Below are positions 1 through 38,954 of a stretch of DNA of 38,954 bases, piece after piece. The notes under the pieces are model-generated. The model saw only the letters and a list, made by a program, of their open reading frames with translations, had not been told where the DNA came from and ran no database searches. This stretch comes from Escherichia phage P762: the sequence record MW876471. One strand, written 5' to 3'. A program made the translations under genes and the position numbers. Within the stretch, counting starts at the first letter, position 1. Each line of letters begins with the position of its first letter.

Positions 1-1931
1 ATAATGTCTCGACCAACCTGCCACGACTCTGGGTTATCCCCGACCATAAGCTGGTGTTTGGACACCATGCCTATGGACTTACCGTCAGAACCTTCAGACT
101 GGAACGTTACGGTGTTCTCATTCAGCCAGCGTTGAGTCTGCTGAGTTGCAGCGTCAGCGTTACCTGTACGATAGTACCATGAGTCCCAGACCTTACGAGC
201 ACTTGCGTCCAGAGACGTAGGAAGGCGAGAAAGGTCCTTATTCCGAGAGTCGTTCTTCAACTCCTGCCACGCCTTGTCTGACTCCATGCGCATCTCACGG
301 CTTTGACTTGCAGCTTGCTTATCCGCTTCAATCATCGTCTGAGGGTCCAGACCCATCTTGTCCATCTGGTCGAACGTAGAGAACAACTGAGCTTGGTCAG
401 GATACAGAGCAGCAAAACTTGAAGGGTCCTGAGTGTAGGCACGACGAAGAGATTCGAAGCGTTGCATCTTGTCTGGGTCGTACTGCCCACGGATGACCGC
501 AGCTTGCCACTCACCAGCAGCGTCCTGAGTCAGCGTCTGGAAGGCATTACGGAACGGACCATTGTTAGTGTCAGCCCTTAACAATGCCACCTTCTGCGCG
601 TCTTTAGCAGCCTCAGGGATGTCCATCTGGTCAATCTGCTGTAGCTTGGCAGACGCATAGTTGTTCATGTCCGAACGTTTGAACTCGCCTGTAGCATCTG
701 AGACCGGAAGGTCCTCATAGTTGGTGGACACGTTGTCCCCAGCCAGACGTCGCTGATACACTTGGTCTATGACTAGTTGCTTGTTCTGGGTCTGGATTAA
801 CTTAGTGTTCTCCTTCGCCTGTTCAGCGGACTTACGCTTGACCGCTTCCAGTAAGCTGGCTTCGGCATTAATAAGCATCTGACGCTGAGGCGTTAGTTCT
901 TCACCCGGCTGAAGCAGGTTGTTCTGCTCCTTGAGTTTCTGAATCTGTGCAAGACCAATGGTTGGGTCATCCTGAAGAATCGCAGACTGAACGCCTAACG
1001 CTAAGTCTTCCTGATACTTAGCCACCAGCTTGTACTCAGTTCCTTGTGCCTCAACAATAGCAGCGTTGAAGATATCAGGTCCTACAATCTCTTCGACTGT
1101 AGCGTCCACACCGTTAAGGGTGATTCGCTCGCCTCGTACTTGCTGTAGGAAGTTTGAGCCGCCAGACTTCTGGATTGCGTCACGGACCGTCTGGGTAATG
1201 ACCTCTCGTGCTCGCTGGTCAGAAGGGATAGCAGCAGTCGTCAGTCCATCCCGAAGGTAGGCCATGAAGGTCTTTCCAGACTCAGGCGAACGCATCAGGT
1301 CCCCATCGTTAAGGAACGAGTTCATCTCAATACGAGTGTTCAACATTGCTGTCTCTTCAGACTGCTTGCTGAAATACTTATTGAAGGACCCGTAGATAGC
1401 GATGTTTCGGTCCGTGATGTTATCGTTGAATCCACGCTGGAAGAACTCGTCGGTAGGGTTAATACCCGCCTCTTCAGCATAGGACTTAGCGGCATCCTGA
1501 AGTCGCTGGTGGCGATATTCTTCCATTTCCTGACGTGTGCGGAACTCACCGTTCTGAATCTTAACGTTAATCTCGTCGTCTACAGCAAAGGCAGCATTAC
1601 GACCAGTCTTGACTCGAAGTGCTTCCATAGCGTAAGGGTCGTCCTGATACAGCAATGTGCCGTTCTGGATAGCCTCACGTCTTTGCTGAGGTGTCAGTTT
1701 ACGGATAATCTCGTTAGACCGCTCGTCAGCTCTGGTCTTCTCATCGTCCTTGAACTGCTTGTACAATCCTGTCCCAGACTCAACGAAGTTAGTCAATGCA
1801 CGAGCCAGCCCGGAGTCCCCAGTCGGAGCCTGAACGTTGGCTGCTTGATAGTTGACGGCGATAGTTTTACCCGGCGCTCTGCCGCGACCCATAGTCCGAT
1901 TAGCCAGAGCTGATTCAATATTACTAGCCAT
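1..1931 (-). CDS. gp15: internal virion (core) protein gp15, 5' part; CDS runs off the window start and continues at 38476..38827
   Basis: ATG near 1931 preceded by GGAGG; translation MASNIESALANRTMGRG... contains DERSNEIIRKLTPQQRREAIQNGTLLYQDDPYAMEALRVKTGRNAAF, matching T7 gp15 as recalled; no stop before coordinate 1; in frame with the window-end ORF through the duplicated 127 bp. Confidence 0.85.
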   Translation of the reverse strand, partial: MASNIESALANRTMGRGRAPGKTIAVNYQAANVQAPTGDSGLARALTNFVESGTGLYKQFKDDEKTRADERSNEIIRKLTPQQRREAIQNGTLLYQDDPYAMEALRVKTGRNAAFAVDDEINVKIQNGEFRTRQEMEEYRHQRLQDAAKSYAEEAGINPTDEFFQRGFNDNITDRNIAIYGSFNKYFSKQSEETAMLNTRIEMNSFLNDGDLMRSPESGKTFMAYLRDGLTTAAIPSDQRAREVITQTVRDAIQKSGGSNFLQQVRGERITLNGVDATVEEIVGPDIFNAAIVEAQGTEYKLVAKYQEDLALGVQSAILQDDPTIGLAQIQKLKEQNNLLQPGEELTPQRQMLINAEASLLEAVKRKSAEQAKENTKLIQTQNKQLVIDQVYQRRLAGDNVSTNYEDLPVSDATGEFKRSDMNNYASAKLQQIDQMDIPEAAKDAQKVALLRADTNNGPFRNAFQTLTQDAAGEWQAAVIRGQYDPDKMQRFESLRRAYTQDPSSFAALYPDQAQLFSTFDQMDKMGLDPQTMIEADKQAASQSREMRMESDKAWQELKNDSRNKDLSRLPTSLDASARKVWDSWYYRTGNADAATQQTQRWLNENTVTFQSEGSDGKSIGMVSKHQLMVGDNPESWQVGRDI

Positions 1932-26941: not shown

Positions 26942-27273
26942 CACTCGCAGTCCTCTTCAGGCTCGAACCATACCACATCACGGCTATCAGACACATCGTT
27001 ATACAGTGCCTCGTAAATGCGAGCTTGCAGTATGCGCGTTACGTCCTTGGTATCAGGCATCAGCCCAGAGTCTTCGAACTCAATGTCTATACCATCAGCA
27101 GCCATCACCGTGAAAATCTCGTGGTAATAGTGCGGAACCTGACCGTCTACGACCTCATGCAGCGCATCGTGATAATCATCGCCTTCAGTTATTTCGTCGT
27201 ACTGAATGCGATCGTTAAATGCTTCAACAGTTGCAGCCAGCAGCTCATAGTATGCGTTAGCGTTACGTTCCAT
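26941..27273 (-). CDS. ocr: Ocr-like DNA-mimic anti-restriction protein (gene 0.3)
   Basis: acidic 110-aa protein; [41 protein letters not shown] almost identical to T7 Ocr. Confidence 0.93.
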
Positions 27274-27485
27274 AGTTATATCCTCTCAGTTGTTAGTGAC
27301 TATCAGTCAGGGCCTTCAGTCGCTCAAGTCAAGCCCGTCTCGCGGTAGACTCAAAGACCCTGTAGTTAGTCGCTATCGGCGCACATTAAGAGTTTATCCA
27401 GATTGTTAAAGAGCATTCGCGTTGGCTGTCGTCGCCGTGCTATCCCGTTTCAGTGTTGGGACTCACCGTTGTTTCAATGTGGTAC

Positions 27486-27515
27486 AGCTTACATCTTATC
27501 TTTACCGCTTGTCAA
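27486..27515 (-). promoter_or_regulatory. host sigma70-type early promoter (T7 A3-like)
   Basis: minus-strand TTGACA-18 nt-TAAGCT followed by GTACCACAT, as in T7 A2/A3. Confidence 0.6.
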
Positions 27516-27627
27516 CTACTTTCCGTCATCTGCCTGTTTTTCGTATGACTTATCAGGCTGTCTACTTGACCGGGATGACCCGGCGTCTTCACTATCCGGT
27601 GGGTGCCGTGTCGTGTTGACGGAAGCT

Positions 27628-27656
27628 ATTAAGCCATAGTCGAGACTTATAGTCAA
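27628..27656 (-). promoter_or_regulatory. host sigma70-type early promoter (T7 A1-like)
   Basis: minus-strand TTGACTATAAGTCTCGACTATGG-CTTAAT, close to T7 A1. Confidence 0.6.
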
Positions 27657-27808
27657 TAGGTGATTTGAAATTAATATTGATTAAACTATCGTCGGCCCCA
27701 TAGTGACTAAGAGGATATAGTCTTTGACTAACATGTCTTAGACCTTAAGTCTATAGCGTTGTGTCTATTAGCTGTATGTCTCTGACTGTAGGTGTTGGTG
27801 TCTTATGG

Positions 27809-27840
27809 CTGAGACTGTAGGTTGCTGAGACTGTAGGTTG
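27809..27840. repeat. 16-bp tandem direct repeat (ctgagactgtaggttg x2) within an array of short iterated motifs
   Basis: exact tandem duplication; nearby recurrent gactgtaggt, cctatgg and cctatcgt motifs, analogous to the short repeats next to the T7 terminal repeat. Confidence 0.7.
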
Positions 27841-27869
27841 TAGGACCTATGGCTGTTGAGACCTATGGT

Positions 27870-28058
27870 TATACAGATAGAGACTCAGAGACAGACCAAT
27901 AGTCCCAACCTATCGTCCCGACCTCCAGCCATAGCCTCAACCTATCGTTGACCTGAAGTCTTGACCATTGGTCCAACCTTATGATAAACTGGGGTAGGGC
28001 CTTTGGTCTGGACTGAAAGAGGGCCTATGGGGAGACTTGAGGTTCTTGAACTGTGAGA
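27870..28058 (-). repeat. predicted direct terminal repeat of the linear genome, single collapsed copy; left genome end near 28058
   Basis: minus strand from ~28058 reads TCTCACAGTTCAAGAACCTCAAGTCTCCCCATAGGCCC, homologous to the first bases of the T7 terminal repeat; boundaries inferred only. Confidence 0.45.
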
Positions 28059-28304
28059 TGTGGTCTCAAACTTTTGGTCCAAAACTCATCGTCCCTCCTT
28101 AGGAGCCAGCTACTGTAGGTCAAGGACCGTAGGTCTAAGACCATCGGATGACGACCAGTGAACCAATCAGTAGGTAGACCAGAAGTGAGAGCCTGAATGG
28201 TGTTACCTAAAGTCCTTGACTACAGTAGCTAAGGTCAGTAGAGTGAGTCTTTATCCACGTACTGACCTTAGGTCTTCCGCTCATGAATCGTTACCATGAT
28301 TGCG

Positions 28305-28463
28305 TTAATTACACTGAGACACCAGAGAACATACGAGAGTCTCGACCCACCCGACCCACTGACTTCCAGCAGTAACGCCAGCAGCAAGTAGAACAGCAGC
28401 AAGAAACCTGTATGTAGATCGATTGGTCGCCAGAGCTTTAAGTACAGCTTTGGTCTTTGCCAT
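28305..28463 (-). CDS. gp19.5-position small membrane protein (52 aa)
   Basis: AGGAGG SD; MAKTKAVLKALATNRSTYRFLAAVLLAAGVTAGSQWVGWV..., last gene before the genome end. Confidence 0.5.
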   Translation of the reverse strand: MAKTKAVLKALATNRSTYRFLAAVLLAAGVTAGSQWVGWVETLVCSLVSQCN

Positions 28464-28643
28464 ATGCTACATACCTCCTGTATCTATGGTCGGTGACTAT
28501 CTGTATTGGAGGGATTATGATTAATATCACCATCCTTCCATCGGTGCAAGCCTTAGGTAAGAACTCGGAGTCTGCCTCCTAAGGTCTTGCATAAAGTCTG
28601 CATATGTATATTCACTACAGTAATACTATAAGTAACCGGGGGT

Positions 28644-28666
28644 CTTCCCTATAGTGATAGTTAAGT
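28644..28666 (-). promoter_or_regulatory. phage RNAP promoter (phiOR position, after the terminase gene)
   Basis: plus-strand ttccctatagtgatagttaag. Confidence 0.75.
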
Positions 28667-28760
28667 CCAAACTCCTTGTAAAACAGTAGGTTAGACTGGT
28701 AGTAACTATAGGTTACTAACCGCGTATTAATGCAGTTTTCACCCATAGTTATTCATACAG

Positions 28761-30524
28761 CTAGTGGAACGTAACGTATGACCCTAGTCCTAGCTCGTCG
28801 TCAGTATCGTGAGTTACCCGGACCCCATTGTCCCAGAACTCAGTGTGGATGGACTCGAAGCCTTTCCGTGGGTTCTCCATCTGTTCCTCCAGCCACTCCT
28901 CAGTGACTTCACGTTCGCCTTTGTTGGCATCCTTAGCCATAGACTCAACGAAGAACTGCACACCGATAGCCAGCGCATCAAGTCGGTCATCGTGTGCCAA
29001 TGCTCCACGTTCACGAGAGATACGGGTCATCTGGTAGAAGAGAGAGTAGATAGGGTTACGAACACCATCCTTGTCAGAGGCTGTCTGGTAGTCTTGGACG
29101 ATAGCAGCAGCGTTGACGATAAGTCTGTGAGACCCCATGATAGGCTCCAGAACGTCACAGATGCGGAGTTCTTTCTGACCCTTACTCTTCACTTCAGTTA
29201 CAGCCGCAGGATGTATACGTGCCGCTACAGGCTTGAATAGCTCAAGGTACATACCATCACCGAAGTTACCCTCAATGACGTATTCGTTGACCTTCCACTT
29301 ACGACCAATCTTAGCCAAGGCTTCCAGCGTAGAGTCTTCATAACCACCACGCATACCACCAACTTCCATAGCGAAGATGTAACCGTTTAGCTGATACAGT
29401 ACCGCATAACCAGTTTCATCCTTACCACGACCACTAGGGTCAATGACCAGAATCTTCTGGGTGTACGAACTGAAGGCAGAACCTACAGTCTGATACGTGT
29501 GGTATGAGTCACCCATGAGTCCAACGTTAGGGACGTCCTCGCGCTTGTTCTGAGGGTTTGGCAGCCATTGGTAGACCATTGGGCTGGACGCTGGGTCCAA
29601 GTCGGCTACGATAAGGTCACGGAGCTTCAGAGGGTACTTCTCAGCATCACTCAGGTTCGGGTTAAGCATGAATTGTAGAGCGAAGCCAGCTTTACCATAG
29701 GACAGCTCACGTTCCTTCAGGTCCGTATCATCAAATCGTACTTCGTCTGTCGGACGCCAGTAGAAGGACTCAGGGTCCTCTTCCAGTTCTGCCTGAAGCA
29801 TAGGAGCCAGACGGTCGCCGTAAGACTGCCAGTCCTTCCTGTCGCGTGGATAACGAGCTGGCCAGATAGTAGTGGTATACCCACGACCCTCCAACTCACG
29901 ATACAGGGTCATCTCGTTCTGAGGAGTGCCCAGATAGATGATTGTACCTCCCGGCTTCAGGATAGCGTCGAACTCTTTCACAAGCTCTGACAGTCGGTCT
30001 CGCGCAGCCTGAGTAGCAGAGTTGTTTGGAACCTCCACGTCATCAGCAATAAGGATGTCAGCACGACTACCAGTCAACTGACCAGTGATGCCAACGGACT
30101 TAACCGAAGGTGAGTGGTCCGGCTTTGCTGGTCCAACGTCGAAGCTGATAACCGCATCCCTCTGTCCCTGCTTAGGTTTGAGTTCCTGAAGCTGAGGCAT
30201 GAGGTCGATGATTCGCTTGATGAAGATGGAGTTAGCATCTGCTCGTTCCTTTGAGGCCGACACAATCATGAACTTCAAGTCTGGGTTATTCCATAGCTTC
30301 CAGACCACGAAGGCACACGTAATGAAGGACTTCCCGATACCACGGAACGCCTGTAGGATGAAACGCCTGTTGTCCCCAGCCGATAGTTTCTTCGCCATGT
30401 CAATCTGGCAGCGAGTTGGTACTGGGAGTGACAGAGCTTTCCACAGGACGAACAGGAAGAACACGAAGTCTGCCTTCATACGGGCAGTCATTAGCGCCTG
30501 ACGCGCCACTAAGTCTTTACTCAA
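28761..30524 (-). CDS. gp19: terminase large subunit gp19
   Basis: 587 aa; [125 protein letters not shown] blocks match T7 gp19. Confidence 0.97.
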
Positions 30525-38475: not shown

Positions 38476-38954
38476 TTACTCCTTACCAATTAGTGCGTTT
38501 GCGATACCCTCCAGTGAGACGTCATTGTACATCCCACCGCGCTTCTCGATATTGGCCTCTCGGTCAGCTCGACGTTTATCACCAGCAGCTTTAGTCCCGA
38601 CGATACGCGCTCGCTTGTTAGCGTCACGTTCTGCCTGAGCGTATGCGGCATCTTGTGCCTTCTGCTGTTGTTCGCGGTAGAGTTTACCTACAATTTCTTT
38701 ATCGTATCGAATACGAATAGTCCCTGTAGCGTCTTGGAGGAAGATAGAGCCGTTCTGTTCAACAACGGACAACTGAGAGTTCACTACCCAAGGGTTAGCC
38801 TTAATGAGTTGCTGACGAGCTGTGTCGATAATGTCTCGACCAACCTGCCACGACTCTGGGTTATCCCCGACCATAAGCTGGTGTTTGGACACCATGCCTA
38901 TGGACTTACCGTCAGAACCTTCAGACTGGAACGTTACGGTGTTCTCATTCAGCC
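38476..38954 (-). CDS. gp15: internal virion protein gp15, 3' part (same CDS as 1..1931)
   Basis: C-terminal translation ..SWQVGRDII..ANPWVVN.QL...GSIFL.DATG.IRIRYDKE matches the T7 gp15 C-terminus; upstream part lies beyond the window end. Confidence 0.85.
   Translation of the reverse strand, partial: LNENTVTFQSEGSDGKSIGMVSKHQLMVGDNPESWQVGRDIIDTARQQLIKANPWVVNSQLSVVEQNGSIFLQDATGTIRIRYDKEIVGKLYREQQQKAQDAAYAQAERDANKRARIVGTKAAGDKRRADREANIEKRGGMYNDVSLEGIANALIGKE
38828..38954. repeat. 127-bp exact duplicate of window positions 1..127 (circular-assembly overlap)
   Basis: end sequence ataatgtctcgaccaacctgccacgactctggg...ttctcattcagcc is identical to the first 127 bases; lies inside the gp15 coding sequence. 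Confidence 0.9.

Follow-up and report, generated by a model that had tools for sequence, protein, structure and literature searches.

Genes and promoters around the junction

The window (the whole stretch of P762 DNA analysed here, 38,954 nt) is a complete Kayfunavirus genome, that of a K1F-like podophage of the T7 family. Two Escherichia phages of this genus, ST31 and TM1, share 94% identity with a 25-kb query taken from the window, and at least 80% of that query is covered in 184 records; a 1.5-kb query around the junction matched 380 phage records, in which the matching regions are mostly annotated as "terminase large subunit" and small hypothetical proteins. The genes of P762 are all on the minus strand (the contig is the reverse-complement of the usual form), so we describe the junction in the minus-strand, or sense, direction throughout.

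In this direction the locus contains gene 19, a φOR-like promoter, gene 19.5, a first group of short repeats (the right flank), the terminal repeat, a second group of short repeats (the left flank), and the early promoters (Table 1). Gene 19 is the last large gene ahead of the junction, and gene 19 of CR44b is annotated at the homologous place; the order of gene 19, promoter, and gene 19.5 is the same in CR44b and T7. The φOR-like promoter is one of seven matches to the phage-promoter consensus ACTATCACTATAGG in the window, where 0.03 are expected; all seven are on the minus strand. Both a predicted CR44b promoter and the T7 φOR are found in the homologous position between these two genes. CR44b also has an annotated gene "19.5" of the same position and length (159 nt, with one predicted transmembrane helix). 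Directly past the gene 19 stop, at about 28,700-28,730 (minus strand), we also observed the sequence TAATACGCGGTTAGTAACCTATAGTTACT, which resembles a decayed T7-type promoter; an inserted homing-endonuclease gene separates gene 19 from the promoter in CR44b.

The initial annotation had described a non-coding region of about 500 bp between gene 19.5 and the early promoters. The region is indeed there, but it is longer, extending over 648 nt from the stop of gene 19.5 (28,305) to the -35 hexamer of the A1-like promoter (27,656), which marks its end. Three small ORFs within it matched no family in a PHROG search and for that reason are treated here as non-coding; an Rfam search of 27,300-28,800 at E ≤ 1 gave no match. 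A scan of 27,000-28,900 with host-promoter and terminator consensus sequences returned four promoter-like sites (3.3 expected) and no terminators; we found it uninformative as promoter evidence, and it missed both the A1-like and the A2-like promoter because their -10 hexamers are weak. By eye, no counterpart of φOL was evident upstream of the A1-like promoter.

The early promoters themselves were placed by alignment with T7 and K1F. Between them (approximately 27,533-27,567, minus strand) is a block, AAGTAGACAGCCTGATAAGTC..ACGAA.AACAGG, that is almost invariant in P762, K1F, and T7 despite diverged surroundings. A 46-aa ORF running over the early promoters (27,516-27,656, minus strand) matches phrog_30192 (E = 3e-21), and a pseudogene "0.01" is annotated near its position in CR44b; phrog_30192 is probably a family of over-annotated ORFs and not a real gene.

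Table 1. Coordinates of the features at the P762 junction and at the contig ends (positions of the window).
Feature	Coordinates	Strand	Basis
Gene 19 homologue, large terminase subunit, 587 aa	28761..30524	-	ORF list; BLAST matches "terminase large subunit" / "DNA packaging protein"
Predicted phage-RNA-polymerase promoter, T7 φOR analogue, ACTATCACTATAGGGAAGA	28643..28661	-	Exact match to the window's promoter consensus
Gene 19.5 homologue, 52 aa, small membrane protein	28305..28463	-	ORF list; phrog_2193, E = 6.6e-25
Right-flank short-repeat array	28059..28304	-	Units of GACCTAAGGTC / GACCTACGGTC / GACCTACAGTA type; self-similarity z = 3.7
Perfect 12-nt inverted repeat, CTAAGGTCAGTA ... TACTGACCTTAG, 19-nt loop	28229..28271	-	Arms 28229-28240 / 28260-28271
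Predicted direct terminal repeat, 180 nt, single copy	27879..28058	-	Alignment to relatives' record ends
Conserved box CTATCTGTAT across the right repeat boundary	27871..27880	-	Position of the T7 class II pause signal ("CJ" site)
Left-flank short-repeat array	27700..27878	-	Self-similarity z = 8.1
Exact 16-nt tandem duplication, sense AACCTACAGTCTCAGC x2	27808..27840	-	TRF: period 16, 2.1 copies, 100% matches
Early host-polymerase promoter, T7 A1 homologue (TTGACT, 17 nt, CTTAAT)	27628..27656	-	Alignment with T7 and K1F
Early promoter 2, T7 A2 homologue (TTGACA, 18 nt, TAAGCT)	27486..27515	-	Alignment with T7 and K1F
Contig-end overlap	1..127 = 38828-38954		Exact terminal match, 127 nt

The predicted terminal repeat and its two ends

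The minus strand around the left end reads ...GAGACCACA/TCTCACAGTTCAAGAACC... (here and below a slash marks the boundary), where the T of TCTCACAGT is position 28,058; TCTCACAGT occurs only once in the window when both strands are searched. A 216-nt query across the putative repeat matched 241 phage records, several of which are linear with the match reaching the end of the record. Position 28,058 aligns with base 1 of K1F, SH3, SH4, and T7, and of three isolate records from IMG/VR, while the CR44b and GA2A records carry two and one extra bases, respectively, ahead of its equivalent. The homology of this strand to the start of the T7 terminal repeat, and a linear genome starting near 28,058, both proposed in the initial annotation, are thus supported by the alignments.

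The right end reads ...GAGTCTCT at 27,879, followed by ATCTGTAT. SH4, T7, and the three isolate records have their last base at the equivalent of this position and all end in ...GAGTC(T/C)CT; relative to it, the right end of the K1F record is at -1 nt, that of CR44b at +1 nt, and that of SH3 at +5 nt. The right boundary is therefore uncertain within 27,880 to 27,874 (-1 to +5 nt), the records of the relatives being spread over up to 6 nt. We predict from these alignments that virion DNA begins with base 28,058 (TCTCACAGT) and ends with base 27,879 (...GAGTCTCT), which would give a direct repeat of 180 nt. The presence of a direct repeat, which had been put at about 190 bp, is thereby supported through homology, and its length is revised.

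The 180-nt repeat shares 97% identity with the annotated repeat of CR44b, 93% with that of K1F, 80% with that of SH4, and 60% with that of T7 (z = 6.7 against shuffled sequences). In the relatives, the left and right record-end copies are identical over 160-191 nt, with the exception of GA2A, whose ends differ at 29 of 196 positions and whose own annotation gives a repeat of 165 nt; this 165-nt annotation looks unreliable, and record ends do not look uniformly trustworthy. Several of the ends are known independently: run-off sequencing of virion DNA located those of SH3, SH4, and SH5, with repeats of 183, 190, and 190 bp, and the K1F repeat is quoted as 179 bp (PMC4925675); PhageTerm recovers the 160-nt repeat of T7 (PMC5557969).

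Annotated repeat lengths within Kayfunavirus extend from 165 to 191 nt, and the right ends of the records scatter from -1 to +5 nt around 27,879. Both facts would be expected if the ends of P762 were of the T7 type but shifted by a few to tens of bases, for example to give a repeat of about 165 nt (the length annotated in GA2A and phage F) or one of about 190 nt (the SH4 and SH5 length). We consider such a shift improbable: in the alignment, the greater length of the SH4 repeat is due to an insertion within the repeat, and the gap in length between SH4 and K1F comes from internal insertions, both boundaries falling at the same positions of the window; the 165-nt annotation of GA2A conflicts with the ends of its own record; and five independent records, T7 included, end at exactly the homologous base. 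The boundaries at 28,058 and 27,879 are those used below.

The contig as a circularised assembly

The window has a single copy of the 180-nt repeat, and elsewhere an exact overlap of 127 nt is shared by the contig ends. Since these two observations go together, the contig is a circularised assembly, opened at an arbitrary point, in which the terminal repeat is collapsed to one copy; the collapse had been suspected in the initial annotation. This is in line with reports that short-read assembly opens T7-like genomes at arbitrary places and loses one copy of the repeat (PMC10438801). The layout of the window is that of a genome-genome junction in a replicating concatemer, with one repeat per junction.

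An exact direct overlap at the contig ends is also what an automated caller would report as a terminal repeat, and it could be argued that the 127-nt sequence is the true repeat and that 27,770-28,300 is only an internal regulatory spacer. We regard this as having a negligible chance of being correct. The overlap falls within a 760-aa ORF whose reading frame continues unbroken across the contig ends; we take this ORF to encode a gp15-like internal virion protein, from the annotations of its matches and by analogy with T7 gp15. The alignments of relatives pass through this point without a break and none of these phages ends there. Relatives with determined ends all start at TCTCACAGT. Moreover, 127 is a common largest k-mer length of short-read assemblers, and assemblers assign the first base of T7-like phages at random (PMC5557969). 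The 127-nt overlap is an artefact of circular assembly and no physical terminal repeat. Its removal leaves 38,827 nt of unique sequence, and with the repeat at both ends we infer from the sequence a virion DNA of about 39,007 bp (38,827 + 180).

An assembly that closes to a circle would also be obtained from a permuted genome, and in T7 the promoters φOL and φOR, which flank the ends, are associated with secondary replication origins. It might be proposed on these grounds that P762 packages by headful without fixed ends, and that the region is a packaging start or replication origin whose repeats bind initiation proteins. Several lines of evidence make this highly improbable. P762 is T7-like in its terminase and in its genome as a whole; terminase phylogeny groups the closely related phage F with K1F in the clade of short direct repeats (PMC5582158); relatives whose repeats are 80-97% identical to that of P762 have fixed ends, by run-off sequencing or PhageTerm annotation; and T7-like phages show fixed termini in high-throughput sequencing (PMC3896407). 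Judged by its sequence, the region does not appear to have the characteristics of headful (pac) packaging, and fixed ends with a collapsed repeat are the reading that we retain.

Many deposited genomes of relatives have "hypothetical proteins" annotated within the terminal repeat, or are in permuted form (e.g., EPr2, OM256482, L003 477-617; and several MZ234xxx records). EPr2 and the similar 216Ecol046PP records each have four matching places, with additional copies of the repeat in internal positions, which points to problems of assembly or finishing.

Short iterated repeats

The region from 28,304 to 27,700 is strongly self-similar: 179 pairs of 11-mers match at nine or more positions, compared with 34 ± 10 in dinucleotide-shuffled sequences (z = 14) and with a genome-wide median of 36.5 for the same count in 605-nt windows. 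The upstream flank, the repeat itself, and the downstream flank are each enriched (z = 3.7, 8.3, and 8.1, respectively). We used this motif-free test in place of exact k-mer enrichment, whose numbers were only modest owing to the degeneracy of the units.

The right-flank array ends in TTGAGACCACA directly before the cut site. The left-flank array contains two copies of CCATAGGTC, three of ACCTACAGTC, and one each of CCATAAGAC, CATACAGCT, GCTATAGAC, and CTTAAGGTC, and the exact 16-nt tandem duplication is located inside it. The three ACCTACAGTC copies (sense reading; at 27,784, 27,813, and 27,829 in plus-strand coordinates) are three of the four sense-strand copies in the whole genome. CCTATGG is found at 27,846, 27,862, and 28,024, and CCTATCGT at 27,909 and 27,941. 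All units that the initial annotation had named, including the 16-bp duplication recovered by TRF, were found where it had located them, and the self-similarity test supports the arrays as a whole.

CCTAAAG, the unit of T7, was picked before we looked at the region; allowing at most one mismatch, it occurs eight times on the sense strand where 2.2 are expected (binomial P = 0.0016), with no enrichment on the opposite strand of the region. A position-weight matrix grown from a single seed gave a near-palindromic unit of about GACCTAMRGTC, with 20 sites in 645 nt and 220 genome-wide; the matrix was fitted to the region, and these figures are a description and no test. A full-text literature search for CCTAAAG returned unrelated papers only. 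The short units of P762 are the family equivalent of the CCTAAAG arrays of T7, and the likeness to the T7 repeats noticed at first sight is confirmed in that the arrays on both flanks have T7 parallels (see below).

Just past gene 19.5 and about 190 nt upstream of the start of the repeat, there is also a perfect inverted repeat with 12-nt arms. Its arms, but not its loop, are conserved in K1F, and the DNA is predicted to fold with -11.4 kcal/mol (z = -3.0). In T7, a hairpin intermediate forms during concatemer processing, some 190 bp leftward of the repeat; by analogy, the inverted repeat of P762 may be related to it.

A conserved box at the right boundary

A conserved box, CTATCTGTAT, spans the right boundary of the repeat and reads T-ATCTGTA, matching the class II motif of T7, ATCTGTT, at six of seven positions. 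Its core, CTATCTGT, does not vary among the window, five further Kayfunavirus records, and T7, and lies between +164 and +189 nt from the start of the repeat in nine of nine related loci that span the junction (+178 in the window). In T7, ATCTGTT begins at the first base past the repeat, as in ...GTGTCCCT/ATCTGTTACAG, and the window has ...GAGTCTCT/ATCTGTATAAC. Every Kayfunavirus sequence examined has A and not T as the seventh base. A single ATCTGTA is found on the window's sense strand where 2.2 are expected, which is not a significant depletion.

The class II signal for T7 RNA polymerase is the non-template-strand sequence ATCTGTT with A, C, or T before it, and any base change in it is reported to abolish class II termination by the T7 polymerase. 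The pausing step is uncertain here because ATCTGTA lacks the seventh base that T7 requires; the Kayfunavirus polymerase is a different enzyme from that of T7, and we infer by analogy that the K1F-group polymerase would pause at the box. It is also conceivable, though in our estimate unlikely, that CTATCTGTAT in the K1F group is not a T7-like pause site but mainly a signal for the right-end cut by the terminase, or that the polymerase of this group has a different, co-evolved pause specificity.

An inverted copy of CTATCTGTAT is found on the plus strand at 28,497-28,506, between the φOR-like promoter and the start of gene 19.5. Its core, ACAGATAG, is present at about -437 or -515 nt from the start of the repeat in nine of the 16 Kayfunavirus loci checked, including those of K1F, CR44b, ST31, ZG49, F, and SH3, and is absent from SH4-type phages and T7. 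This copy might mark another site of the same process in the opposite orientation, or it could have been kept simply through shared descent.

Comparison with K1F-like phages, T7, and T3

The repeats of K1F, CR44b, SH3, and SH4 (178-191 nt) have the same first bases as that of P762 (TCTCACAGTTCAAGAACCTCAAGTCTCCCC...) and the same right boundary (...GAGTCTCT/ATCTGTAT), with 80-97% identity across the whole repeat. They also share the flanking genes and the flanking units ACCTACAGTC, CCATAGG, and CCATAAG, although the number and order of these units vary among the Kayfunavirus relatives. The CR44b repeat differs from that of P762 by point differences only (5 of 180 positions), and the 16-nt tandem duplication of P762 aligns with longer runs of ACCTACAGTCT in GA2A and SH3. 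The repeat is single in P762, as a consequence of the assembly, whereas the records of the relatives have two copies.

The T7 junction, CTGAGTGACTA/TCTCACAG, has the same order of parts and the same first nine bases (TCTCACAGT) as that of P762, a similar sequence ahead of the cut (TGAG...A/TCTCACAG), and a shared block at the right boundary (GTCTCT..G.GTC.CT/ATCTGT). The interval from gene 19.5 to the repeat is also of similar size (246 nt in P762 and 239 nt in T7). The right-flank array of P762 corresponds to the array that T7 has on the left side of its right-hand repeat, and the left-flank array to the CCTAAAG array on the right side of the left-hand T7 repeat; in T7, CCTAAAG occurs 11 times in the first 400 nt and five times in the last 400 nt. 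The two phages differ in the length of the repeat (180 nt in P762, 160 nt in T7), in the commonest flanking unit (CCTACAG or CCATAGG in P762, CCTAAAG in T7), and in the junction box (ATCTGTA in P762, ATCTGTT in T7).

In the T3 and φYeO3-12 group, the left end is TCTCATAGTTCAAGAACCCA and the right end ...GTGTCCCT (PMC3896407). Both boundaries are homologous to those predicted in P762, but the repeat is longer, about 230 nt. T3-like loci from viral contigs share only about 45-52% identity across the junction, and they blurred a conservation profile that we derived from 20 junction loci of such contigs; the first 18 nt of this profile are conserved by construction of the search pattern, and the profile is not used as evidence here.

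Interpretation and implications for annotation

The terminase gene, the φOR-like promoter, gene 19.5, the terminal repeat, the boundary box, the short-repeat arrays, and the A1- and A2-like promoters all have counterparts in K1F, CR44b, the SH phages, and T7. For this reason, we interpret the region as the concatemer junction of a K1F-like Kayfunavirus of the T7 family, which would have ends of the T7 type; we put the probability of this reading, drawn from sequence comparison, at about 0.9.

If P762 behaves like T7 and T3, its genomes would be joined through the repeat into concatemers during replication, with a single repeat at each junction. The gp18/gp19 terminase would recognise sequences near the junction and cut at two fixed positions, and extension synthesis would then copy the repeat, so that each packaged genome has two copies. 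Regeneration of the repeats by extension synthesis at staggered nicks has been described (PMC5557969), and packaging specificity resides near the genome ends and involves gp19, according to the work of Yamagishi et al. (1985) as cited in PMC3276506. Transcription from the φOR-like promoter would run into the junction, and a pause of the polymerase at the right-boundary box would probably help to start maturation, as has been proposed for T7. The short units would most likely serve for protein binding or DNA shaping during concatemer processing.

The junction of P762 is a feature of an already known kind in a close relative of sequenced phages, and it adds nothing new on the formation of T7-type ends; its value lies in annotation. 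The correct form of the genome is obtained by reverse-complementing the contig and rotating it to start at 28,058, and finishing it requires that the 127-nt overlap be dropped and a second copy of the 180-nt repeat be added, giving about 39,007 bp. The 127-nt overlap at the contig ends, which automated tools would miscall, should not be reported as the terminal repeat, and annotation should omit the small "hypothetical proteins" found inside the repeat in several database records. As for the short units beside the repeat, P762 provides one more example for the family.
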